DNA of 64,000 nt from Anolis carolinensis (lineage: Eukaryota). The notes beneath the pieces are model-generated. The model worked only from the letters and a program-made list of their open reading frames with translations, was not told where the DNA came from and searched no databases. The translations under genes were made by a program, and so were the position numbers. Location of the stretch: NCBI RefSeq assembly GCF_035594765.1, contig NC_085841.1:312923402-312987401 (forward strand), written 5' to 3'. Below are positions 41,201 through 59,398 of this stretch, piece after piece; the first letter of the stretch is position 1; each line of letters begins with the position of its first letter.

Positions 41201-44200
41201 TATTTTTTAATTACTATTAATCCAAGGCTTTAAACAACCTTTTAACATTTTTCTTATATCAGTCTGTATTTTAGTTTTCCAACATCTTTTAAAATGTTTT
41301 GTAGTCAGGAATACCAAATACAGGTAGTCTCAAAGTTATAAGCAAGATAGATTCTACAGGTTTGTTCTTAAACTGAATTTGTTTGTAAGTCAGAATAGGT
41401 AAATTTTTAAGTGTAACTCCAGCCAAATTTGGCTTTTAGTGGAAACAAGGATTAGTGAGAAAGCTTCAGTGGAGCCACCTTTTCCCCATGACAACTCTTT
41501 CAGGAGTGAATTTTCCAATTGAGATTTCCCTCATTTCCTGTTGTATAACTCCTGCTCTTAACTATGAGTCATTTCTAAGTCAGATATTTGTAACTCAGGG
41601 ACTGCCAGGATACACATAATTCTTTGAAAAGAATGTATGAAAATAGAAACAAAAAACCCCAAGCATGTAAATATCACATTTCTTGTGAGTCAGCCCTCCA
41701 AATTTGCAGGTTTACCTTTTGTGAATTTGATTATTCACAGATCGCATTAGACCTTCCAGGGCAACTATGTGGTCAAATTCTGCTGGTAATTGATCATATT
41801 TGCCTAGGGGATCTAGACATTCCTAAAAAGGTGTTACCCCAACTGCCACAGAAATAGAAAATCTATTGTAGTTGGTATCATGGCACTCAAGTATTAAAAT
41901 AAGCTAATTATTATTTATGCACACAGCAATGGCATGACATTTTTATTATTTTGCTCTACAAATAAAATCTTTTATATATATATATATAATAACTCATGTT
42001 AGAAAACAAGCCATCAGAATGGGCTTTCAGACAAAAATATGTCCGTTATTAATGGATAGCTGCTATCAGATCCATTTCTAGAGGCTGCTATATGGGCACG
42101 GTTATATTACTGTTAGTGTAGCGGCAAGTAAGCTTACAACTTACTTGGAGTGGTAGGTGTTCCTCTTCTCCCAGATTTTGGCAAGTTGCCTTTGTAAGGT
42201 TTCTTTCCAGAAAGAGAGCTCACAGGAGTATCACCTCATATAAAAACATTGGAAATAAAGCTTTAACATTGGTGGGAAGCAACTTTCACTAGCAGCCAAA
42301 ATGAGATCACCTCATGAAATGACATTACCCACTGTAAAAGATAAAAATGCTTCCTAAAGTAAAAGGCAGGAGAGGAAGAATAGGCTACAGTCGGATTAAA
42401 TAAAAAAGGCATGACTCTGAGCTCTGCAAGTCGGAAAATCATGCCCTATGAAATGCAGCTTAGGGAACTGGAAATATTTATGGGAAGGAGGGGGTATGAT
42501 AATCACGTTTAAATATTTGGAAAGATATACTATTGAGGATGGAGTGAACTTGTTTGCTGCTATTCCAGAGACATGAACCAATTAATTCCAACTACAGTAA
42601 AAGAAATTCCCCCTAAACACTAGGCCAGTAAACTAAATAAGTTGTCTCCTTATTAGAAAACTATCAGATTAAAATAAAACTAATATTCTATTTATAAGGG
42701 CAAATTACTTTCAATTGTTTTTTGTACAGTAGAATTCTCTTTTTGATGGCCTGGAGTAACAGATTCTGCTGCCAAGTTTCCTGTCATTTTGCTGTTGGTC
42801 AGATATTCATCTTGGTATGTCTCCAGTGTTTTTCCAGATCCAGCATTTTGCAATGGTTCATTTTCTTTCTGATCTTCTGGAATCTACAGTTGAAAATCAA
42901 TAGACAAATATATTTGAAGTCTAACATCTAGCACCAGCTGGTGGTGCCATCTCAATGAGGCAGCAAGTCCAATCAGTCTAAAACATAAAAAGATTTAGAA
43001 ATAATCCGAAGTTCAGACAACATTCCAGAGCAAATTCAGCACCCCATTCTTATGGAAGTCACCTGCTTCTACATCATTATTTTCTTCCTTCACATGGAAT
43101 GCAAACAAAATAACAACTGCAGAAAGCAGACATTTACAAATTGTTAGATGTTGACCACACACATCTATTTATCATATAGATGTGGGTAGGAACTTCTGAA
43201 AGACTCTCACGAGAGTCTTGAACAGATTTAGGGTGTATCTACACTGCAGAAGGTTGACACCACTTTAACTGCCATGGCTTGATGCTATGGAATCATGGAA
43301 GTTGTAGTTTTACAAAGTCTTCTCTGCTAGAGTGTTGGTGCTTCACCAGGAGATCACATGATTTTGTTCTTCCTGATGAATAACTGAGAAAAAAATTGTT
43401 GGCAATATTTCTTGCTGCATTTTAAAGGACACAAAACACAAAACTGTATTAATGCTGTAATCATCCAGTTATTATATAATGTGCCATAACTATTTTGTGT
43501 ACATTGCTTTTGGTGCTTTTCATAGCAAGGATGGAACATGAATAATATAAATCTTATATGCTGAAGAGTACCTCTTTCTTTGGGTGACATTCTGGTTTTA
43601 AGTCACAAATGTTTATTTCTAGACTTTCCAGTGCATTATGAGAATTCAGTTTTCGACGACTTTTGGTAACCATGGACAGGTTGGCAGGCATTTGACTGCT
43701 GTCACCTTCCTCAACATCCGAAGCAGAAAAGGTTTCGTTGCTGATCTATACACAAAATAAATTGGACCACATTATTTCTATTTCAGTGTTATCAGTGAAG
43801 AAATGAAAGATGTTCTCAGCTACTAGCAACTAATGCTATATTTCATGCCCCGAGAATAATTGTGACAGTTAAGGGAAATAATTGTTTCTTTGGTCATATA
43901 TATATGGCATATAGCCATCAAGTGAATGGGACATTTCAGAGGCAGAATACGATTCACTTTTTAGAAAACAGGGAAATTACTCTTTTGGTTCTTTCTTAGA
44001 AACAGACTCAGTAGTGGATTTTTTAAAAATGCTTACCATACTTCCATTTTCCTGTGTTGCCTCATGAAAATGCTGCTTCAACACCTTTAACAATTTGTCT
44101 GCCTGTTACAAAAATATGATAACAAATTTCAGAGCTAGGTATATGCAGCTATATTACATAATTCATTACATGAAATACAAAAATGTACTATTAATTAAGT

Positions 44201-47200
44201 TATATAAATAAACAAGAAAAAATATTGCATTAAAATAGCAAGTTCAGCTTGAAATAGTAACAGGAGTGTGAGAAATCTGTCTGCAAGATGCATGCAAACA
44301 TTAGATAGAAACATAACTAAGACATCTTTTACTGCTGTGTGGCCCATGGCTGTCTTCATATGACTGAAACGGAATTCTATGAGTTTTTCATTACTGAGTT
44401 CACACAAAAGGAAATGTACAATACAGTTATTTGAGGATACCATTCTTTGCCATCCAAACTTTCAAAATGTTTTTGTTGCTTTTAAAGCAACCTGTTCAGA
44501 GTATTTCAAAAAGATCTGAAATTGCTATCTCTCTGCCACCACAAACCACTCACAAATAAAACCTTACCACTTGAAATTAGAGCATAGTTTCAAACAATTC
44601 TTCTTAGAGGCCTCTTCCAGCACACAAAGAAGCTCCTATACAAAGCAATTCACAAGATGGCAACACCACAACATAAGGGCCAATGAGATTTTCCCCATTT
44701 CCAGGACTATCTTCTAGATATGTTTCTGGCTGAAATTAAACCGTTTCTAACTTTTTGTGTAATTGTAACATGTTGCCATCATGAAATATCCGTATTTACA
44801 AGATTGAAATGTGCACCTTAATTTTGAGGTGCTCATCTCTAAAAAATTGATTTCCCTCACCCAACCCCAAACTAAACCCTGAAACTTCACCCCTCCTGGG
44901 AGAGAGCGCAAGCCACGAGATGGGGTGGAGGAGCAAGCCACGCACCATGGAAAAAAGTGCAGTCGGAGCGCCCAGTGCCTCAATGCCACTGCCCTCCCAG
45001 ACATGACTTCACCCCCGCAGGCGACGCGATGCAGCGGATTGATGATAAATTGAAGCTCTTACGTGTGCCCGCAATCCAGTCATCCCGCAGAACAATAACA
45101 TGCCAAATAAAAATATAATTTAAAAATATTGATGCTGCTATATAAATATGCAATACTAATAGGGATACAATTAAATTACTCAGCATAAGTGCTAACAGAA
45201 TCAATGTCTCAGGATTACCCATAGGTGTCACTGTAATTGAGGTGTGGTAGCAGAGTGCTGAGATTTTTGCATATAAATTTATAGTAACCTGATGAAAGTT
45301 TGATGAGGGTTGGAGACTGGTGAAGATAAGAGTTTGTAAATACTGAGGAGACCACTCCCTAACAGGAGTGAAGAGTCCCTTCCGCTATAGAACAGAGAAT
45401 TGTCAGGGGCTGATTTCAACTCCTGGCAACACCAACATCATCAACTACTCTGAAAACAACAATAAAAAAATAACCCTCGAACATTACTGAGACAATTTCC
45501 AGTAAAGAAGCAATGCACTTAACAGGAGGAAGAAATATTAACACACAATGTACACAATGATACAGTGTAAGTGCTTGCAGCACTGCCTAGTTTGGAAGAA
45601 GTCAGCAATGCCATCAGCCAACAAAAAAACAACAAAGCCAGCAGACCTGATGGGATCCCTGCTGAAATCTTCAGAGGGTGGACCTGAGCTGATACAACAA
45701 CTCCACTGAAAAAGTGTGGGTGACCGAAAAAATCCCAGCAGACTTCAAGGATGCCACATCATCACCCTTTTCAAGAAAGGGGATAGAACAGACTGCAGAA
45801 ACTATCGTGGTATCTCCCTTCTAACCTCCGCTGGGAAAATCCTCGCAAGAATCCTTGGAAACCTTGCAAAATGCTGATGATAGCGTAGTCTGTGCGCATT
45901 CAGAAGAAGACCTACAAGCCATTCTAAACACCTTTGCAGAAGCATACGAGAAGCTCGGCCTCTCACTGAACATGCTCTTCCAACAGGCACCAGCTAATCC
46001 CTCTGCAATGCCAGGAATACAGCTTAATGGTGTCACATTAGAAAACGTTGAGCATTTCCGCTGCCTTGGCAGCCACCTCTCCACAAAAGTCAACATCAAC
46101 ACTGAAATACAACACCGCCTGAGCTCTGCAAGTGCAGCATTTTTCCGTATGAAGCAGAGTGTTTAATGATCGGGACATTCGTATAGATACCAAGGTGCTT
46201 GTTTACAAAGCCATTGTCCTCCCAACCCTGCTCTACGCCTGCGAAACTTGGACGGTCTACAGACGTCATACTCAACTCCTGGAGTGTTTCCATCAGCGTT
46301 GCCTCAGAAAAATCCTGCAAATCTCTTGGGAAGACAGGCAGACAAATGTCAGCGTGCTTGAGGAAGCAAAGACCACCAGCACTGAAGCGATGCTCCTATG
46401 CCACCAACTCCGCTCCGATCACCGTCTCCCAAAGCAGTTACTCTACTCCGAACTCAAGAACGGGAAACGTAATGTTGGTGGGCAGGAAAAGAGTTTTAAA
46501 GATGGGCTTAAAGCCAACCTTAATAACTGTGGCATAGACACTGCGAACTGGGAAGCCCTGGCCCTTGAGCGCTCTAATTGGAGGTCAGCTGTGACCAGCA
46601 GTGCTGCAGAGTTCGAAGAGGCTTAAGGGAGAAACGTGCCTTCCACCTGGAAACCAATGTCCTCACTGCGGTAGAACATGAAGATCAAGAATAGATCTCT
46701 TCAGCCACCTACGGACACATCCCCAAGACACCAGAAATGGAAGACAATCATCCTCGAACTATGAGGGATTGCCTAAGTAAGTAAGTACAGTGTAAATCAG
46801 GCATGGGCAAACTTCGGCCCTCCAGGTGCTTTGGACTTCAACTCCCACAATTCCTGGCAGCTTTAGGTTGCTTTTCCTCCTCAGCCGCTTAAGTGGGCCG
46901 AGGCTGACAGGAATTGTGGAAGCTAAAGTCCAAAACACCTGGCGGGTCCAAGTTTGCCAATTTCTGGTGTAAATGCACCTCAAGCTCCATCAAATCAGTT
47001 CGTCTCTAAACACCGAGTTCAAGACCCTTTCTGTTTTTAGAGGCACAAAACCACAATCGAGACTTCAGGTTTCTTCGATCGCAGGTCACAAAGGGTGCGT
47101 TTACACTGCAGAAATTAGCACAATTTGACACCGCTTTAACGGCCATGACTCAACTATATAGAATCATGGGAACTGTAGTTTAACAAGGTCTTGGGCCTTC

Positions 47201-47470
47201 TCCGCCAAATCCCGGGATTTTATAGTACTGTGCCATGGTAGTTAAAGTGGTGTCAAACTGCACTAATTGTACAGTGTAGATGCACCCTCATGTCCTTCCG
47301 CGTCCCAGATAGCAATCTGTAAATACGTTCTCATGGGGAATATCAATAACTACGGTGAGGCGTTAAGTTCTCACCTTGAGATTGGCTCTCAGTCCCAGAG
47401 CCTTGGCCAGGGACTGCAGCTCGCTGTACTTGAGCGTCTCCAGCCGTGCCTCGGGAGGGGAAACCTCCAT
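32263..47470 (-). CDS. NUSAP1: NUSAP1 nucleolar and spindle-associated protein 1, about 476 aa
   Basis: Coding exons: 47375-47470, 44037-44102, 43572-43745, 42709-42883, 42145-42234, 40155-40267, 38532-38597, 38236-38411, 37754-37938, 36062-36175, 34248-34335, 32263-32350 (1431 nt, open frame). SAP-like N-terminus [84 protein letters not shown] and a KEN box. Boundaries of the poorly conserved middle exons 3-5 and 7 are less certain. Confidence 0.9.
34547..34864. mobile_element. TcMar/Tigger-like MITE
   Basis: Same family as 13918, opposite orientation; TA TSD. Confidence 0.85.
35323..35916. mobile_element. Tigger-like MITE with GC-rich repetitive interior
   Basis: TIRs cagtagagttctggttatcc / ggataagcggaactctactg; TA TSD. 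Confidence 0.8.
36892..37360. mobile_element. Mariner-type MITE with very long TIRs (about 160 bp)
   Basis: TA-cgagggctatccagaaa...tttctggatagccctcg-TA; arms complementary for about 160 bp; adjacent (ATCT)n repeat. Confidence 0.9.
40356..40830. mobile_element. MITE with CAC...GTG-type termini (Chapaev-like), interrupted by an inverted L2-type tail at about 40533-40600
   Basis: caatatgtaacaaaattt...gttcctgg versus ccaggaacaaaaattgtgttacttagtg. Confidence 0.55.
41321..41608. mobile_element. Degenerate TcMar MITE
   Basis: caggtagtctcaaagttata...tgtaactcagggactgccag imperfect TIRs. Confidence 0.55.
45630..46785 (+). mobile_element. RTE-clade LINE 3' fragment, internally deleted and frameshifted
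   Basis: RT motifs ([27 protein letters not shown] in place of [37 protein letters not shown]) and a (TAAG)n 3' tail. Confidence 0.9.
46798..46966. mobile_element. hAT-type MITE
   Basis: TIRs caggcatgggcaaactt / aagtttgccaatttctg; perfect 8-bp TSD gtgtaaat. Confidence 0.85.
47092..47288. mobile_element. GGGTGCATCTACAC-TIR MITE
   Basis: agggtgcgtttacactg / cagtgtagatgcaccct. Confidence 0.75.
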
Positions 47471-47865
47471 GACTGAGCGCCACCGGTTCCGCTCGCCTCA
47501 AGCCACCAAAGGCAACGCTCCAACCGCCGCACCTCGAAGCCGCTCGCGCTCTGCCTTTGAATATTCAATTGCCGCGCTGCGTTGGTTGAACCCTCGGGGA
47601 AGAGGGCGGTGCCTGAAGGGGGCCCTTGACCAATAGGATGCCTTCGTGCGAGCCAGCAAAAAAAAAATGTTTATTTTTAAAAGGCGCGAGCGTAAATGGT
47701 GACTCCAGAAGCGAAAACATCGCCTTCCCCCCTCCCTTGGAATAATCTGATTGGGTCAAATCGCAAAGTGAGCGAGCAGCTCCAGCCAATAGGCGAAGAG
47801 AAGGCGGCCGCGTGCTTCCCCCAGACTTAACGGAGGCGGGGAATGAGGTTTGAATCTTTGGCAAG
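47471..47865. promoter_or_regulatory. NUSAP1-OIP5 bidirectional cell-cycle promoter (CCAAT/CHR/E2F-like)
   Basis: 395 bp between the two ATGs. CCAAT boxes at 47630, 47750 (reverse) and 47786; CHR TTTGAA at 47556-47561 and 47849-47854; GGCGGGGA at 47835; YY1-like AAGATGGCGG over the OIP5 ATG. Confidence 0.8.
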
Positions 47866-50800
47866 ATGGCGGTGCGTCGGCAACTGCAACTGCTCTTCCA
47901 GGGGCCCCAAGCGTGTGGCGGCATCATGGTGGAGCGGGCGGGAACCGGGGCGGCGAAGGGCCTCGGCCCGCAACCAAGCAAGAGGCCTGAGGATGCCTTG
48001 GAGCGAGGCTCCGGCACTCGGGGCATGAGGCCGAAGGACTGCGTGCTCTACCAATGCCGGAGCTGCCGCGTCGTGTTGGGGGACTCGCTCCACCTCTGCG
48101 CCCACGAGGACAAGCTCCGCCTCCTCGCCTGCTTCAGTGAGTTCACCTGGCTCTGGGCATCCTCTCTAAGCCAAGTGGGGACAAGCTGGCCCTCCAGTGT
48201 TTGGGACTCCCAACTCCCAGAAGCCATAGCCAGCTTGTCCAATGGTCAGGAATTTTGGGAGCTGAAGTCTGAAACATCGGAGGACTAGAGTTTGCGACTC
48301 ACTTGGGAATGAATGCAGTTTTTGTCACCACTTTAATTTAACTACTTTAACACTTTAATTCACTGGGTCTGGAATACCCATCCAAAAGAAAATAGGTTAG
48401 CCCTCACCCTTCAATTCTTCCAATCCAGCCTGAAAACATGGATGTTCAAACAGGCTTTTGACATGGGCTGAATAGGCCCATATGAAGTTGACACTCTGGC
48501 ACTTTAGTTGTGAATTGATGGCAGCTAGTTTTATCTATAGATGTCAGTGTTTTTAAAATTGTGCTATACTAATTTTATGTTATAGGTATTGACAGGGGTC
48601 CTTATAATTTTATGTGATTTTGTTTTATACGTATGTACCATTTTTACAGTTATGTCATATGCGCCACCTTGGACTGCCCTTGTAAGCCGCCCGAGTCCCT
48701 TCAGGGAGTTGGTGGCGGGATATAAATAAAGTTTATTATTTATTTGTTTACGTACTATATATCAACCCCACTCTTTTCACCCCGCTAGGGACTCAGAGCG
48801 GCTTACAGTTTGGCCACTTCAGTGCCACATTGCAAATACACAGTGTATAAATAGAATACACACCTGGTAAACTGGCTGTTATTTCTGGGAGTTGTAGGCC
48901 AAAAACATCTGGGGGCTTCCAGGTTCAGAACCACTGCTATAAGGTATCATTATTACTGTGCGTCTATGTTTTAAAATTATGGGAGTTGTTGTTTTCATGG
49001 TGTTTAAGTCTTCTCTGCTCAAGAATGCTGGTGCCTCACCAAACTACAACACTACAATTCCATATCATCAAGCCATGGCAGTTACACTAGTGTCAAGTAT
49101 GTTCTCTCAGGGCTGTTAAACCCATCTTCATGGGGGGGGGGGGGGGGGTCAGCCTTATGGTTGCCTTCAACAGGCCTTTGAATCCATGGATGAAGAATCT
49201 GAATACAGGGGGCCAGCTATATTTTTTCACATAGTTGTCTTGCATTTTTAGCCCATTTTGGTCCCCAGATGTTCTTGAATGACAACTCCCATCACTTTTG
49301 ATTATCAGCCATGCTGACTTGGGAAAATGGGAATTGCACTCGATGGCACTTGTAGCTATGAGGTTAGGGAAAGTTTAAAGGACATTTTATAGTCAAATAT
49401 CATATCCACAAGCCTTATATCTAAATTCAGACACCATTTTTCTAACTAAAAAGGACAGTTTGCAGCCTTACAGATGTTACTGTATCACATTTCTTATTAG
49501 CTCTAGTCATGATGTCTATTGAACAGGAATGACAACAGAGTTGTCATTCAGCATCTAGAAGCCCACATAAAATGACATGGCAGGTCAGATTTGTGTAGAT
49601 TCACCCTCAGAAATCTTTCCAGCTCAATTATATCCATATATCCTTGAAGGCTACCTCTTCCTACTTCGTGTTTTCTTTTCTTTACTTTTTGTTCCAGGCC
49701 ATCTACCAACATAAAAATAGTTCACCTTTTTCTTTTCTGTTCAGCAAATGAATGAGATTCTTCTGCAGTCAAATTTCTTGTCAAGTCTTTAAGCAGTATG
49801 CAATTATTGGGATACAGTTGACTCTTCACATCAGTTAATTTGCAGATTTCTTTGCTGTATTTATGCCACTTCTTCTGCTGTTCTACACACAACCAAAAAC
49901 ATGTGGTATTTTCTGTCTAGACATTTGTGTCTCCGAACAAATGGCTAGAGCAGTGTTCTCACAAGTTAAAAAATAACATTTACAATTTATATTTGCATTT
50001 CCCCCAATTGAGACCCTGTGGCTCTAACACCTGTAAATGTGGATGAGCTACTATATATTAGAGATGTGTGAGACGTCAAAAAACTGCCATTTTCTGTCCT
50101 ATTTTCGGCTCCTCCCCTTCTGTTTACCAGGAAATTCCCGAAATCGGAAGGGGAAAAATAACGTTCCATGATCCAACAACCAGAAGCTCTGTTTCTGGGA
50201 AGATCTGGCCCATTGGTGACAATGGGGAATTTGCAAGACTTCTCTCTCTGTCATTTTTATGGCTATCGGGATAAAAATGGACACACTTGGAAGACACATT
50301 TATGACTGCAAGCCCTACATGTTTCAGGACGTTTGGGTCATCCACTGATTTTTAGGAAATTGTTAAAGTTTCTAAATTGAAATAATATTCTCCTCATGGG
50401 GACTCAAGGGAGTCAGGCTATCACTCCCATCCCTAAACCTATCCCACACTCAATCAAGTTAAAGCAAAAAAAAGTTTAAAATATTTAAACAAACACACAC
50501 AAAACGCCCTTTTAAAACTCACAGCCCCCCCCCAAACACACACACACACACGCCTCCCTAGTGAAATTAGTAAAATAAAAGAACTACTGTATAAGATATT
50601 AACTCAAAAAATGATATACTGTAATACAAAAGAAAAAGATTGGAATTCTCAAAAAGCGATCATAAGCAACAACACTGAGATAGAACACAGAGCTATTTAT
50701 CATACGCTGTCTTGCTCTCTCTCAAATGAAGGTAGATGATGACAAGCTGGAAAGTGTCCAGAGGAGGGCGACTAAAATGATCAAGGGTCTGGAGAACAAG

Positions 50801-53800
50801 CCCTATGAGGAGCGGCTTAAAGAGCTGGGCATGTTTAGCCTGCAGAAGAGAATGCTGAGAGGAGACATGATAGCCATGTATAAATATGTGAGGGGAAGTC
50901 ATAGGGAGGAGGGAGAAAGCTTGTTTTCTATTGCCCTGGAGGCTCGGACGTGGAACAGTGGCTTCAAACTGCGGGAAAGGAGATTTCACCTGAACATCAG
51001 GAAGAACTTCCTAATTGCGAGAGCTGTCCGGCAGTGGAACTCTCTGCCCCAGAGTGTGGTTGAGGCTCCTTTGGAAGCTTTTAAGCAGAGGCTGGATGGC
51101 CATCTGTTGGGGGTGCTTTGAATGTCATCTTCCTGCTTCTTGGCAGGGGGTTGGCCTGGATGGCCCGTGAGGTCTCTTCCAACAATGAAAAAAACTGTGT
51201 GCAGTTGATATTGTCAATCACGGAGCAGCTAAATGTAGCTGAAATATCCGGCACCAGGTGGTCTGTTCCAGCTGAGTCTGGCTGCCCCCACCTGGTCTGT
51301 TTTTGGCGGTCCAGCTGCTGGATCACCAAATTTCCCCAAATCCCGCACCGCAAAATAAAACAATGCACACTCCTACTATATATGTTATGATATGTTATGC
51401 ATTCATATCATATAATAATGTATTATTTATAAAAATATATTATTTTAGTTTGTTCTTATACGGAAATGTCTCTTAAAAGTATACATTAAAGTTGAAGTTC
51501 ACACTGTAGTGATTCTAGCAATAGATTATGGTCTTCTACAGTCATGACTATAGATAAATATCTGTTTATATATATATACAGTAGAGTCTCACTTATCCAA
51601 CATTCGCTTATCCAATGTTCTGGATTATCCAATGCAGTCTGCCTCCTGCCGGGATACACAGCTGTTTCTCTAGACAGCAAGGACTGAACTTTTTACGCAT
51701 TTAATTTCCAACAATGTTGTTACTATAAGTTCATTTTATGCAATTATATCTTTATTCGTAGTCAAATTGTTAGTAGCCAATGTTTTTGCAGTCAATGTTT
51801 TCAATACATTGCGATGTTTTGGTGCTAAATTCGTAAATATAGTAATTAGTACATAACATTACCGTGTATTGAACTGTTTTTTCTGTCGATTTGTTATAAA
51901 ACAAGATGTTTTGGTACTTAATTTGTAAAATCATAATGTAATTTGATGTTTAATAGGTTTAATCCTTCCTTATTATCCAACATTTTTGCTTATCCAACGT
52001 TCTGCCAGCCCATTTATGTTGGATAGGTGAGACTCTACTGTATAATAAAATCTGTTAGCAGGATTTTTGAAGTTTAATTTTTGAAAAATGTTTTTCTCTT
52101 TCAGAAGTTACAAAAGATATTGTTGTGGAAGATGATTTGATGGTTTGTGTTGAAGGCGATCTTACTGGATGGTGGGTATTTCTTGAAATTATTCCTTCTC
52201 TTTTATGCATGCTAAATTAAGTGACTATTACTTGTAGAAGATAACTAATAGTTTCCAGGCCTGTGTTTTGCATCTTTCTTCAAAATGCAATGAGTATATC
52301 TTTCTATTTCCTTTGAAATGAAAACCTTCTATGAGAAAAAGGGGTGGGTTTTTTAACCAAAAAATATGATGAAGAGAAACTTTGTATTGCTTTTGTACGT
52401 CAAAACTTATCTTTGTTCACCCTTCAGTTGTTGAATAATTAAAGCTGTACCAGATTTGGTAGGTTTTAATACAGTTTTCTTACATTAACATCTTTCATGT
52501 GTGTTTAAATTTCCTATAGATAATACTGCTTTTCTAATTGATTATGATGATAATATATTAGTTTTTATATTCTATATTGCTTATATTCTAACTTGTTTGT
52601 GGAGTATATTTCCTGGCAAAGCAGGATCTAAATACTTGAACAAATTAACAAAAATATGATTGGATTCTGTGGAAAAAGGAAGTGTTCAAATTATGTTATT
52701 TTAAATATATTTTAGATGAAGCAACAAGTGTTAGAATTTAATGAAGCATTTCTGTAATAAGGAAAGTATAGTGATATTGATAGGTGCCCCAGTGGCTCAG
52801 TGTGTTAAAGCGCTGAGCTGCTGAACTAGCAGACTGAAAAGTCCCAGGTTCAAATCCCAGGAGCGGAGTGAGCGCCCGCTGTTGCTCCAGCTTCTGCCAA
52901 CCTAGCAGTTCGAAAACATGCCAATGTGAGTAGATCAATAGGTACCACTCCATTGGGAAGGTAACAGTGCTCCATGCAGTCATGCCAGTCACATTACCTT
53001 GGAGGTGTCTACGGACAATGCTGGCTCTTTGGCTTAGAAATGGAGATTAGACATGACTGGACTTAATGTCAGGGGAAACCTTTACCTTTTAGTGATATTG
53101 ATGTTTACTGAATCTGTTTTATCCGTGAGTTGAACTGCTATTCTTACATTACATTAGGAGAAGAATGGCTTTTGTTACATTTTCTTTAGGATTATATAAT
53201 GGAGAACCCATTGAAATTGCAAAAATACATGCCGAATATGCATATTCTCAGACACAGTATTATATACATTTATCATGCAAATCTTCAAAAAAATGACTTA
53301 AAATAACTTCTGAATTTGGGTTTTCAGACTGCAGTTTTTTCAGGAATTTATAGAATAGGTTCAAGAGCTGTTTCCATGGTGTTTGATGCCTATGAAATGT
53401 GGTGTAAAGTTCAATTTGTTATATAGAAGACAATTTGGAACTTTGAGCTGACTCCAGCCTCTGTCTTTTTCTGCCAGCACTTATAACTTGTTGCTCTGTC
53501 GGTCCTGTGAAGCATGTGTAGGCTTGAAGCTATATTGTTCAGAATCTCATGCTTATCTCAGAGGCTTCTTCTGCCTTTTTAAGGACAACATCATATGGTT
53601 AGTATCCTTCACAATCATACTAAACCTCAAATTTAGAAAGCTAGTTTTAAGAAGAATGGATCTCAGGGCATGCTGAAGCAATCTGTAATTAAGTAGAGGT
53701 GGGATGATGCTCAGCCCAAGCTTACATATAAATATCTTTTCTTTTTTTAAACTAGTTCATATGACTTGCCCTTATGTGAAAAGATTAGGACTTGGAGCAA

Positions 53801-56339
53801 TGGGTTCAAATCACAGGAAAGAAGATTCCATCTGAATGTTAGGAAGAACTTCTTAGTTGTGAGAGTTATTTAACAGTGGAACTCTCTGCCTTGGCGTGTA
53901 GTCAAGGTTCCTTCCTTAGAGGCGTTTAAACAGGCTGGGTGGCCATCTGTCAGGAATATTTTGATTGTGCTTTTCCTGCATGGCAGGGGGCGTGGACTAG
54001 ATGGCCCATGTGGTCTCTTCCAGCTCTATGATTGTATGATTAATTAATAGTCACAATTTGGTCTGAATATTTAGATGTGAGGACTTTCTCTTGCTGCCGT
54101 AAATGGAAAAGAATGCGGATGTGAAATATTCAGAAATGCTACGATTGCTGAAATGAACTCAGCCTGATGTTTCAAGAATTAACCCTCTTCTGTATCACCT
54201 GCAGCCTCCTGCATGTTCCCAAATATCTAGTGCAGTGGTTCTCAACCTGTGGGTCCCCAGATGTGTTGGTCTTCAACTCCCAGAAATCCTAACAGCTGGT
54301 AAACTGGCTGGGATTTCTGGAAATTGTAGGCCAAAACATCTGGGGACCCACAGATTGAGAACCACTGATATAGTGGGTGTTTTTTCAAGCTAATTTAGGG
54401 GATTCTATGGGCTTGTGAGAGGTGTAAAGGAAGGAAAATCCCCTCCTGCAATCATTTTTGATGGAAGCTGATCTTTGTCAGGAGGGATTAGATAACTCCA
54501 ATATACATTAATATGAAATTGTTATTGTTGTTTTATTACAAAAAATGTATTTTCTTGTCTTAGTTACTCATTAGAGACTAAAACCACTGTTGAAGCTTCA
54601 AAGATTATCTGTCCTCAAATCAGCTTAAAGGAACAGGTACAAAAGGTAACCTTTTTCTGCTTTTTGAGTTTTTTAAATAAATGTGCATATTAGAATTTAT
54701 ATTTTGCTTTGGCACAGAGAAATATAACAGATTACAATAAAACTAAACAGTTCAAAATATGCACAGTACAGCATTGTAAGTACCCTGGAGGTTTTCAAAG
54801 GCTGGATAACAATTTGTCGGGAGTGTATTCCTGCATGGCAAGAGATTGGACTGGATTACCCTTGTGACCTTTTCCAACTCTGATTATGTGTTGATGGACA
54901 GGGTACTTAGACATTTCTCATTCATAAGGTCGCCATAAGCAGATTTGCCAAAATCCTTTTTCCACTGGACAGTCCCACCATGTATGAAGACAAAATCCTA
55001 CCAAAGCAGCTTCTTCAGCATAGTGAAGAACTATTATTATTAGTTATGTGGCACCTTTAATTAATTTTTAAAGTGCCACAGCATTCTTTTCTTTTTTTCA
55101 TCCTTGAAGAAGTGGCTGTGGGTGACAAAAGCTTGTGCTGAAATAAATTGGTTAGTCCTACAGGTGCCAGAAGACTAGCAGAAATCCGTTTATACCATGG
55201 GACTTTCCTATTCATTATTATAACTCTACTGCAGGTTCTTGTGCATCCTGAAAAATGGGGAAATGAAGGCCAGGAACTTCATTTGGGTCTTGGACCCTAT
55301 GGGGAGACTCAACAAATATTAGGCAAAACACTAAAGTAAGCGTGAGCGTTTTAAGATGCTTGAGTAGTAGACATGCCTTTCCCACTGAACCTCATAGAGC
55401 AGCATTTGTCCCCTCTGTACCTCCATATTTTCCCATTTTTTTTAGTTAGAACTCCCCATGCCTTATGTTTTGTACCTCTTATTTTAAAATTATATTATTA
55501 ACATTATTCATGTCCCCGCCCTCAGGAATCCCCTTCCAAAGGAGACTGGGCTCCCCCCCCCCCCCCCCATATTATAATTTTACCAACAGGCAAAGACATT
55601 TTTATTCAAGTAGACCTTTATCTGATAAGGTTTTTATAGGATACACTGGGCCCTTACTATCTATTGGGGTTTGGTTACAGGACCCACCCCCAGACCAATG
55701 GATACCAAAATCTGCATGCTTCGATCCCATTACAGTAGCATAATAAAATGGTGTCACTTATATGAAATGGCAAAATCAAGGATTTTGTATCCCTGTGTCA
55801 ATATGTTAAAGCCATGAATAGTTAAATCTGTGCATATAGACTATTTTATCAATTATTTGTTTGTTTATCTTTAAAATGTTTTATGTGGCTCTGTTTTAAA
55901 TTTTAGTATGAATATTTTAACTGATTGTTTTTGGGAGCCGATATAGGTCCCAATCTGAAAGACAGTAAACAAGTGCAATACTTAAATATTTTAAAGTAGT
56001 AATAACATAACACCCTTGTTTTTGTTGATATAAATATTTGTCAAGTAAAAAATAGTTTTTAAAAGTTCCACAGTACATTGAATATTTTACCAATTCCTAA
56101 TTATTTTATTAGAAAGTGTTTAACTCATATTTTGTGTTACTTGTTTTACTTAAATGTTATTGTTTAAACTTCTTTTGAAGTTGAAAGAAAGACTTGTAAT
56201 AGTACACACACGTATAGAATTGCTGATGGAGAAATTGGAAGGATTAAACCAGCAGAAAATAAAGGCAGAGAAGCAAGACTCTCATGGAAGACGACATAGC
56301 CAGATACCTGGATGTAAAAGGAAAAAGTCAAGCAATTAA
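47866..56339 (+). CDS. OIP5: OIP5 / Mis18-beta centromere licensing factor, 232 aa
   Basis: Coding exons 47866-48136, 52105-52171, 53478-53597, 54564-54645, 56181-56339 (699 nt). Two CxxC motifs of the Yippee/Mis18 domain (YQCRSCRVVLGDSLHLC; YNLLLCRSC...LRGFFCL) and a C-terminal helical segment. Head-to-head with NUSAP1 as in other vertebrates. Confidence 0.93.
50733..51183 (+). mobile_element. CR1 LINE 3' end (ORF2 C-terminus)
   Basis: KLESVQRRATKMIKGLE..PYEERLKELGMFSL..RLDGHL plus the CR1 3'UTR. Confidence 0.92.
51579..52040. mobile_element. TcMar/Tigger-like MITE (longer variant)
   Basis: TIRs cagtagagtctcac / gtgagactctactg; inserted in a (TA)n run. Confidence 0.88.
52783..53089 (+). 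mobile_element. Sauria SINE
   Basis: Same sequence as 16221; 13-bp TSD tagtgatattgat at 52769-52781 and 53090-53102. Confidence 0.9.
53787..54040 (+). mobile_element. CR1 LINE 3' end
   Basis: Homologous to 50945-51183; ends tctatgattgtatgatt. Confidence 0.85.
54233..54367. mobile_element. hAT-type MITE
   Basis: TIRs cagtggttctcaacctgtgggtccccagatg / catctggggacccacagattgagaaccactg; TSD atctagtg / atatagtg. Confidence 0.88.
55045..55178 (+). mobile_element. Penelope-like element terminal fragment (degenerate)
   Basis: tgaagaagtggctgtg...aaagcttgtgctgaaataaattggttagtcctacaggtgcca resembles the reptile PLE terminal repeat; recognised from memory. Confidence 0.5.
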
Positions 56340-56775
56340 TCTGTTGAATTTCTACAGTAATATCTTAATTGTGTCAAACATGGTGTTTGAAAGGAACTTC
56401 ATACAACTTTGATTTTGAATGCATTTGAAAATGGACCTGCAGTTGAATTTTATGTGAAATTCAACTGCAGGTCCAATTTCAAATGCTATTTTTTTACAGA
56501 GCACTCAAGTGCATTAATAGGTTGAATAGGAACAACATGTGCATTATAGATGCCTTTAGCTTACATTCACAGAAACATGGTTATCCTTCTGTTTTATGAT
56601 TGCATTATGAATATATTTTGATACAGATTGTGACATTTTGCCCATAGGGCACATGCCTCCCGTTGATCCTGCCAGGTACCATCTATGCTAAAACAGATTT
56701 TTTTAAAAAGGAGTACAGCTTGGGGGTAGGTGGGGGAGAGGAAGGGCCTGTTGAAATTGCTGTTGCTTTGTCAGA

Positions 56776-56781
56776 AATAAA
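56776..56781 (+). terminator. Candidate OIP5 poly(A) signal AATAAA
   Basis: AATAAA about 440 nt after the stop, followed by a GT/T-rich element (tgtgttttttt). Confidence 0.55.
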
Positions 56782-56932
56782 TGTAAAATTTGCACATGTG
56801 TTTTTTTGACCCCAAGATCATCTGGTCTTCATTTTTGGGTGAAAGCAGTTAGGATTCTACTTCAGTGAAATAGAAGTGTGAATTTAGAAATCAGTTATGT
56901 TAAAATAAATTGAGCCTTTCTTAATTAGCTTA

Positions 56933-57127
56933 ATGTTGTTGTGTGCCTCTAAATTGTTCCCAATGTATAGCAACCCTAAGGTGAACCTATCATGGGATTT
57001 TCTTTCTCAGAGACTGAGAAAGTGTGACTTCTCCTAGGTCACCTATTGGGCTTCCATGGCTGCGCAGGTATTCAAACCCTGGCCCTCAGAGTCCTAGTCT
57101 AATGCAGAAACCAATACACTACACTGG
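56933..57127 (-). mobile_element. tRNA-derived SINE
   Basis: Reverse complement of the 17166 family; B box attcaaaccc; (ttg)n tail. Confidence 0.6.
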
Positions 57128-57199
57128 GATTAAGAAATTTTTAAAATAGTGTCTGAAAGAATGACAGATGGACAGTTGCTTCCAGGGGAGTTTTGCCCT

Positions 57200-57790
57200 T
57201 GTGAGTTAGCTGTCCTGAAGACTGATGTCATTTCTGCAAAAGAGCTTGCCTAATGCTCTATGAACTTCTAAGAAAGGGTGTGATTACTGCAATTGATATC
57301 AGCTGCCGTGGACTGCATTGCTCCACAAACTACTTGATGGATGTGCAGTGTCTTGAGTCATGTGCATTGGGGTTTGAAATAAACCATCTTTATCATCATG
57401 GGGTTTAGCCCTGAGGAGATGGGCTGCCTATTAAAATGGTCTGCTGCAAGAGGCTTATGGACCCAGATGCATTCGTCATGGCTCCTGCTGTCTTGATAGG
57501 TGGTACTTATGAAGTTCTACCCAATCTCTGGATTGGGCAAATGGCCCAGGCATTGAACACAATGCTCTTGAGCATCCCCTCACAAAATGAAGCCAGGCTG
57601 CCTTCCACTTTTCCAGGGAACTGGTGGTAATGAAACAAATAAGACTGACTGGAGCAACATTGGTAGAAAAAGTGCATCCAAGACTGGCAAAATCTCATCT
57701 AAGGGCCTACTCTGTGGCAACAAAGATAAATATAGTCTCTGCCTCTATTTCATCTGCGGAGAACCAGCCAGCAGAGCTGTTTCAAATAGG
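57200..57790 (+). mobile_element. Degenerate L2 ORF2 fragment (endonuclease-RT linker region)
   Basis: aggcttatggacccagatgcattc...atctctgga...atggcccaggcattgaacacaatgctcttgagc...gaactggtggtaatgaaac resembles squamate L2 ORF2; recognised from memory. Confidence 0.6.
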
Positions 57791-57855
57791 GATATTTTAC
57801 ATACAAACCCAAAAGAGGAAAATCCAGATTGCTCTTACCTCATAAAGCCACTTCC

Positions 57856-57861
57856 TTTATT
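57856..57861 (-). terminator. Candidate distal CHP1 poly(A) signal AATAAA
   Basis: TTTATT on the plus strand at the edge of unique sequence, about 1.5 kb after the CHP1 stop; alternatives near 57942 and 58390. Confidence 0.45.
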
Positions 57862-59398
57862 TCAAGTCAAAACATGTTTTTCCAATTATATTGTATTAAC
57901 AAACAAACAAAAAAGACTAGGAACTTATCCAGGTTGAAGGATTTTATTCACAGACTGATGGAATACAAGCGGTCTCACAAGGCACAACTGTTGATTATAG
58001 CTACAGAGCCAAAGGATGAAGCTTATTTAAAAATAAGCACATCTAACACCTTGGTATTAATGATCACTGTTCTTCTCTTTACAAAATTCCTATGTTACAT
58101 TGTAGTCAGAATCCCAAAGCATTCTGTTCAAGAGAGATCATTCAACTTGTATTTCCTAAGGGGTTACAATTTAATGATTGGACTGAAAATATACTTCCTT
58201 ATGTAATTTAACAAAGTAGTGCAAATCAACTTTGAGAGATTATTAAATTGTGCAAAATTTAAGTAACTGGGACAAAATACTCAATGCTTATAGAAACATG
58301 GCTTATGAGAGTAGCAAGAGAACAAAGTATTTGAACATTCAAAATAGCTTTTAGCAAGTTACACAACCAAAACTGTTAAAATCTCAAAATTTATTTCAGC
58401 CAATGTGATACTACTTAGTCTGAATGCAGGAATGCTTGAAGTAAAACAAAATAAATTTCCTTAGATCACAGGTTGTACATGTTCTAGATATTATCCTAAT
58501 AATGACAGTGTTCTCATAAATGTGAAAGAACATTATACTCCTCCAGCTTGACTTTCATGTGTATGTTCGGAAACGAAAAATCCAATTGGTCTAGTGTATC
58601 ATAATATGAAAAGAAAACTTTCCTTACAGTTGTCAACAAAAAGAATATGTTGCAAATACTAATTGAAAAATAGTTAACCAAAAGCACAAGCAAGAAATTC
58701 AAGACTTCACATTGCAAACATTTCAAAATAGATAGCAGGAAAGAATTTAACGTCTACTAGTTGAGAAATTACATATACATAAAAACAACATTAACAAGTC
58801 ATATCCTTGGCAGGTGTCCCATCTTCCGGTGGACAAATTCATATACATTTGACATACTTGGAAGCCTATAGTCAACCAAGCCTTAGTCCTGAAAATGAAA
58901 TCACTGGCTTTGCATCATTACTTTTTGAGGTTTAGTAAAATGGGCAGGCATCTATTTCAACAAAACCAGGAGAAGAGAAGGCAGTTATGCTGGCAAGACA
59001 AAGATAATGGAGTATATAGGTACTACCGATCAGATCTTTGTTGCACTTTTTTTGAAATGGCTCTCAGCCAGCCCCTACAGTAGAATTTGCTGTCCTCTCT
59101 AATTTATAGTCCATAAGATGGTGGAAGAGTACAGTACACGGGAAGAAATAATTTATAATCAGAAAACAATGCAAATAGAACCGTGATGAAAAGGCTGTTT
59201 CAATGCTCCATTCCAAGCTGCATTGCAGCCATGTTTCTTGTTCTGATGCAGAAGGAATGTTCACGCTGATGGAACAAACTGGGGAGGGATTTGGAGATGT
59301 ACCTCACATGCACCAGAAGCAATGCTCAGGAAAAAAGATAGTAAAACAAACTATATTCCTTAAATATGAGGACAATGCAAGGATTTGGCCTGGATTCA

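Follow-up and report, generated by a model that had tools for sequence, protein, structure and literature searches.

The window, as we call the whole 64-kb stretch of anole DNA analysed, contains five genes in the order RTF1 (−), NDUFAF1 (+), NUSAP1 (−), OIP5 (+) and CHP1 (−), and is without any N. Pfam matches upstream of OIP5 were to NUSAP, CIA30 and Plus-3 (NUSAP1, NDUFAF1 and RTF1), and the closest named NDUFAF1 was from Anolis sagrei (90%), followed by other squamates at 61–78%. Exons 1 and 3 of OIP5 match the Pfam family Yippee-Mis18, and the frame terminates in TAA at 56337–56339. The minus-strand gene that follows carries an EF-hand in its penultimate exon (Pfam) and its product ends SIRFLH-stop, with the stop codon at 59399–59401; by its sequence and its place among the neighbouring genes we take it to be CHP1. 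Two bidirectional CpG-island promoters, of NUSAP1/OIP5 and RTF1/NDUFAF1, lie at 47300–48150 and 23600–25000, and the start codons of NUSAP1 and OIP5 are ~400 nt apart. The coding features on either side of the interval of interest were:

47866..56339, + strand: OIP5 (Mis18-beta) coding gene, an open, spliced frame of 232 aa that adjoins NUSAP1.
47866–48136, 52105–52171, 53478–53597, 54564–54645 and 56181–56339, + strand: OIP5 exons, with AG/GT boundaries.
59399..62174, − strand: the final four coding exons of the gene for calcineurin B homologous protein 1 (CHP1), called from the translation and the EF-hand, the gene continuing past the window.

OIP5 and CHP1 converge, and the interval between their stops (56340–59398) is exactly 3,059 nt long, matching the ~3 kb given in an initial annotation of this DNA. 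That annotation also placed the likely poly(A) signals at 56776 and 57856, ~1.1 kb apart, and AATAAA is indeed present at both positions; a further plus-strand copy lies at 57378. All poly(A) signals given here are motif calls and mark predicted ends, the predicted signals of the two genes being ~1.0–1.1 kb apart, depending on which are used.

56340..56930, + strand: predicted 3′ UTR of OIP5, with AATAAA copies at 56776 and 56904.
57835..59398, − strand: predicted 3′ UTR of CHP1, AATAAA at 57856–57861, alternative at 57943–57948.

The point of convergence is where the lncRNA gene Cyrano (OIP5-AS1, 1700020I14Rik) sits in mouse and human: in mouse it lies between Chp1 and Oip5 (PMC8184514) and in human its neighbours are CHP1 and OIP5 (PMC7363876). 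The initial annotation assumed this position, next to OIP5 and between it and CHP1, which is correct for both mammals; in zebrafish the gene also adjoins oip5, but its opposite neighbour is tmem39b, not chp1 (Table 1 of PMC6347452). OIP5 is thus the invariant neighbour of Cyrano, and, as CHP1 adjoins OIP5 in the anole as it does in mammals, parsimony suggests that Cyrano already lay between the two genes in the ancestor of amniotes. The order of CHP1, OIP5 and NUSAP1 that flanks the Cyrano locus in mammals, birds, frogs and fish is the same in the anole, so that the orthologous position is present and identified by five flanking genes, yet the RNA gene itself was not found there. According to one comparative study, Cyrano is known from mammals, chicken, Xenopus, fish and elephant shark, has an exonic length of 2,340–10,155 nt with nine ordered motifs, and cannot be aligned outside its core (PMC7798263); a 300-nt core is listed for ‘reptiles’, which could include squamates, in a supplement legend of another (PMC7430676), which speaks against a reptile-wide loss. 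A transcript of this length is too long for the gap of ~1 kb, and whereas the known loci produce an abundant spliced RNA of 2.3–10 kb from the CHP1 strand, the anole locus has a short gap devoid of the lncRNA, its promoter and its miR-7 site. The gap and its contents were:

56800..57835, strand not applicable: intergenic gap expected to hold Cyrano, ~1 kb, with no CpG island, Cyrano motif or core match.
56934..57130, + strand: old SINE-like repeat, called from similarity to a second copy, with a tRNA B-box-like motif seen by eye.
57150..57830, + strand: degenerate LINE-like fragment, ~0.7 kb of broken frames.

Mammalian Cyrano has its own CpG-island promoter, located after CHP1. The initial annotation had seen no such promoter in the anole gap, and base composition bears this out, the CpG observed/expected ratio being 0.09 for the gap and 0.19 for the CHP1 UTR, whereas the window’s two real promoters have 0.86 and 0.76. 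It had further described the gap as filled by a SINE and an L2 fragment, of which the SINE is supported. The SINE (56934–57119) aligns with a second copy at 17175–17367 (64% identity over 195 columns, E 7e-11), and is presumably of MIR/CORE type. The broken frames at 57150–57830 seem to resemble a LINE ORF2, in particular the L2 ORF2 linker, but the L2 label was confirmed by no tool, homologue searches, a representative search and Pfam all giving no usable match in its support; a match of P0121 to this fragment was discarded as unrelated, a spurious product of low complexity.

Vertebrate Cyrano cores for the search were found in a metagenome collection, which we scanned with a two-part miR-7 pattern (115 loci out of ~280 estimated, with 27 of the 64 parts scanned). 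Two of the 115, L108 and L110, have Pumilio and miR-25/92 motifs in their flanks; they share 80% identity over 101 columns and both agree by eye with the human core (supplement of PMC7430676). These are Cyrano cores that occur as host DNA in the collection (L108:195–400 and L110:225–425), and the order of the miR-25/92, miR-7, Pumilio and Rbfox motifs is retained in each. Elsewhere in the collection, a marine metagenome contig (L085:240–290) bears a site almost perfectly complementary to miR-7, for which no hairpin partner is obvious, and ~80 nt downstream another match to the seed; the contig was ruled out as a Cyrano core by its flanks.

A profile built from L108 and L110 was used to search the 64 kb with blastn and nhmmer. 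When planted in the window the two cores recovered each other (E 2e-11 and 7e-11), and mutated planted cores were recovered in 10 of 10 cases at 20% change, 10 of 10 at 30% and 7 of 10 at 40%, rates which are biased upward because the model included the mutated core. By neither program was an alignable conserved core (67–300 nt) around a miR-7 site present in the window, and within the interval there was no Cyrano-core match, the best profile score being 2.5 bits. The best score of the whole window, 10.1 bits, fell at 44468–44495 (−) in NUSAP1 intron 1, where 24 of 28 positions agree with the core’s 5′ half, with no seed (E 0.03); this score was reached by 2 of 120 shuffles. Paired with 43739–43773 it was tried as a split core and rejected: although the order of the two halves fits, they flank a NUSAP1 exon and lie on the side of OIP5 away from the Cyrano position, and 43739–43773 is a NUSAP1 splice acceptor. 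On the minus strand of 56340–59390 none of nine typed Cyrano motifs was found (these cover the short 5′ ORF, miR-25/92, Pumilio, Rbfox, miR-153 and the poly(A) 8-mer), whereas the controls L108 and L110 each possess five of the six motifs tested in them, the sixth being an alternative Rbfox form. At E up to 1, Rfam gave 22 matches in the window, all to microRNA families, with scores under the gathering threshold and for the most part on inverted repeats; none was to mir-7 or a lncRNA.

These searches also bear on a possible remnant, a core-less Cyrano transcript persisting as CHP1 read-through or as a short antisense RNA over the 3′ end of OIP5. Such an RNA could escape alignment, as the lncRNA is not alignable outside its core (PMC7798263), but we consider its existence very improbable, since the conserved 5′ and 3′ motifs and a promoter-like CpG island are absent and it would have ~1 kb of room, most of it repeats. 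It would in any case provide no miR-7 trigger.

The miR-7 site itself was sought separately. The extended site (8mer seed, central loop and ~14 nt of 3′ pairing) was not found in the window: the 11-mer of the 3′-pairing part has no exact match in the 64 kb, and the best two-part match combining seed and 3′ part on either strand had four mismatches, with four or fewer obtained in 11 of 20 shuffles. The seed 8-mer occurs six times (11118, 31881, 46738, 50288, 56285 and 61624), compared with a chance mean of 2.35 over both strands, and 4 of 100 shuffles reach six; all six copies are on the same strand and several lie in introns or repeats. None is inside 56340–59398, and the copy at 56285 is within coding exon 5 of OIP5. 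The initial annotation listed seed-only matches at ~50289 and 56285, and was right that they lack 3′ pairing; the first is more exactly at 50288, and the other four had been missed. In a duplex scan with the miR-7 sequence from L038, the real cores gave −29.5 kcal/mol, whilst the best values in the window were −21.1 kcal/mol on the minus and −22.9 kcal/mol on the plus strand, and the best minus-strand duplex of the interval was −18.4 kcal/mol; shuffled strands of the window gave −19.5 to −23.4. Motif scan, duplex scan and core profile all agree with the earlier reading by eye that no Cyrano-type miR-7 site is present.

The strongest plus-strand duplex lies within the interval:

56808..56832, + strand: weak miR-7-complementary stretch, duplex −22.9 kcal/mol, flanked by the OIP5 poly(A) signals at 56776 and 56904.

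This stretch raises the question of whether the lncRNA was lost and its job taken by another transcript, possibly the OIP5 3′ UTR binding miR-7 extensively at this point, which we regard as a distinctly unlikely course of events. In its favour, 56808–56832 forms the best miR-7 duplex of the window and falls inside the 3-kb interval, and its energy is matched by only 4 of 150 intervals and 2 of 150 miRNAs after shuffling, and by none of 18 other tiles. These frequencies (nominal p 0.01–0.03) hold for the interval, however, and the stretch was found post hoc; at the scale of the window it is at chance level, as two of six shuffled 64-kb strands match it. Nucleotides 3–19 of the miRNA are paired, with one bulge and G:U pairs, but nucleotide 2 is not, so the seed is limited to nt 3–8 (an offset 6mer) and lacks the nt 2–7 or 2–8 pairing. 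Its 3′ part pairs at nt 12–19 and 22–24, again with G:U, and its centre is paired, not looped. By contrast, all known triggers pair through the seed, and even a Cyrano reduced to a 7mer-A1 site loses 75% of its activity (PMC10899785). The stretch also lies beyond the first poly(A) signal, on the strand opposite to ancestral Cyrano, and has no match to the core profile. Its miR-7 complementarity is probably due to chance.

Cyrano is, we are confident, absent from its ancestral position in the anole. The initial annotation had inferred that the gene was lost from this locus or relocated, and its absence at the locus is upheld by a search with real cores and a check of power.

Could the missing segment have been dropped in assembly, by a collapse between repeats? 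The gap is made up of repeat-like DNA, as such an artefact would require, but the window holds no N and words of the region are found in independent data. A total of 340 words sampled from 56100–59500 were sought in sequencing runs; of the 24 runs listed, 20 contain at least half of the words and 16 contain at least 0.95. With two studies that have possible source samples left out, shares in the three remaining, independent studies were 1.00, 1.00, 0.98 and 0.98 (P2), 0.99, 0.99 and 0.95 (P3), and 0.98 and 0.95 (P4). These values of up to 0.98–1.00 argue indirectly against misassembly, although a wrong junction within unique sequence, which would bring in 30 foreign words, would stay hidden at a share of 1.00 if at most one of these were sampled, an outcome with a probability of 0.18. 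Word shares are blind to a collapse between near-identical repeats, but the repeats in the gap are old and no near-identical repeat pair was found in the region. Four small runs, which we guess to be RNA, contain 0.69–0.76 of the words against 0.65–0.69 expected from the two terminal exons, and no evidence is drawn from them. Taken together, a collapsed or dropped Cyrano segment seems to us a most improbable explanation of the short gap.

A relocated Cyrano deserves somewhat more weight, yet we still think it unlikely. Under this explanation the gene was carried off by a rearrangement or by retroposition and persists, miR-7 site included, at another genomic position, as might be expected of a core that is otherwise kept from fish to mammals; our analysis covered 64 kb, and the different CHP1-side neighbour in zebrafish implies that the neighbourhood can rearrange. 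The link to OIP5 is retained in fish and mammals alike, however, and with the flanking order intact in the anole a move would have needed a clean excision. It is suggestive, too, that lizard is among the species used for Chaserr, PUM1 and PUM2 in Table S1 of LncLOOM and is missing from those for Cyrano, the species having been chosen by usable RNA-seq.

On the evidence of these 64 kb we prefer deletion: Cyrano was probably removed in the lineage that led to anoles and is likely lost from the whole genome. The entire gene, with its promoter, exons and miR-7 site, would have been deleted and not moved, and its neighbours spared. This may have happened in a single repeat-mediated event or by erosion in steps. 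Such a deletion could be tolerated if Cyrano is dispensable for viability, and zebrafish with a Cyrano deletion are viable and fertile (PMC6347452) and mice without overt defects (PMC13125240). The anole locus resembles these engineered alleles, the zebrafish cyrano a172 (4,374 bp; PMC6347452) and the mouse deletion (10.1101/279687; PMC8184514), which are viable, with the trigger gone and the neighbours intact. The anole loss differs from them in being natural and apparently fixed, the latter because three independent studies contain the words of the short allele, and compensation has hence had evolutionary time to act. Cyrano triggers the degradation of miR-7 (10.1101/279687; PMC10899785), and in anoles miR-7 is predicted to escape this ZSWIM8-dependent decay. 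The expected outcome would be a raised ratio of mature miR-7 to its star strand, most of all in brain and muscle, provided that miR-7 transcription is not lower and that there is no other trigger. A broader version, in which Cyrano, of all known triggers of microRNA decay the most conserved, has been lost entirely from anoles and perhaps from a larger group of squamates, in an event so far undescribed and undated, and in which miR-7 is either stabilised or under a replacement trigger, possibly 56808–56832, is tentative and on balance doubtful.

Lineage-specific loss of deeply conserved lncRNAs, such as that of Malat1 in birds, was reportedly described by Hezroni et al. 2015 and Ulitsky 2016, and slightly more likely than not one or the other noted the loss of Cyrano in lizards; if so, the absence in the anole is the very event they described. 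The literature searched, to which these two papers do not belong, held no statement of a loss of Cyrano in lizards: reptiles go unmentioned in the text of a 2026 review (PMC13125240), and passages of PMC8764876, PMC7671363, PMC7155256 and PMC13389317 contain nothing on it. Loss of conserved lncRNAs is a known kind of event, and an earlier publication may have mentioned the one in lizards.

The miR-7 site of Cyrano has been kept for >400 million years, yet its deletion in mouse or zebrafish causes no overt defect, which raises the question of what selection protects in Cyrano. If the loss is true, anoles would be a natural knockout in which to ask why other vertebrates keep the gene, and a Cyrano-less lineage permits the comparison of miR-7 level, guide-to-star ratio, ZSWIM8 sensitivity and target-site conservation with those of turtles, crocodilians and birds. 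The absence also limits the common claim that Cyrano is conserved throughout vertebrates. As an absence at one locus in one species, its value is moderate.

Several other repeats were apparent in the window. The OIP5 3′ UTR contains a near-perfect inverted repeat at 56421–56486 (30-nt arms, 97%, 6-nt loop), which is probably a MITE and could form a hairpin in OIP5 mRNA, and a second, MITE-like inverted repeat is located in the last CHP1 intron at 59663–59748 (36-nt arms, 94%). Finally, NUSAP1 intron 1 harbours a broken LINE reverse-transcriptase fragment at 45500–46790 (+) with a weak RVT_1 match, which we take to be RTE-like.
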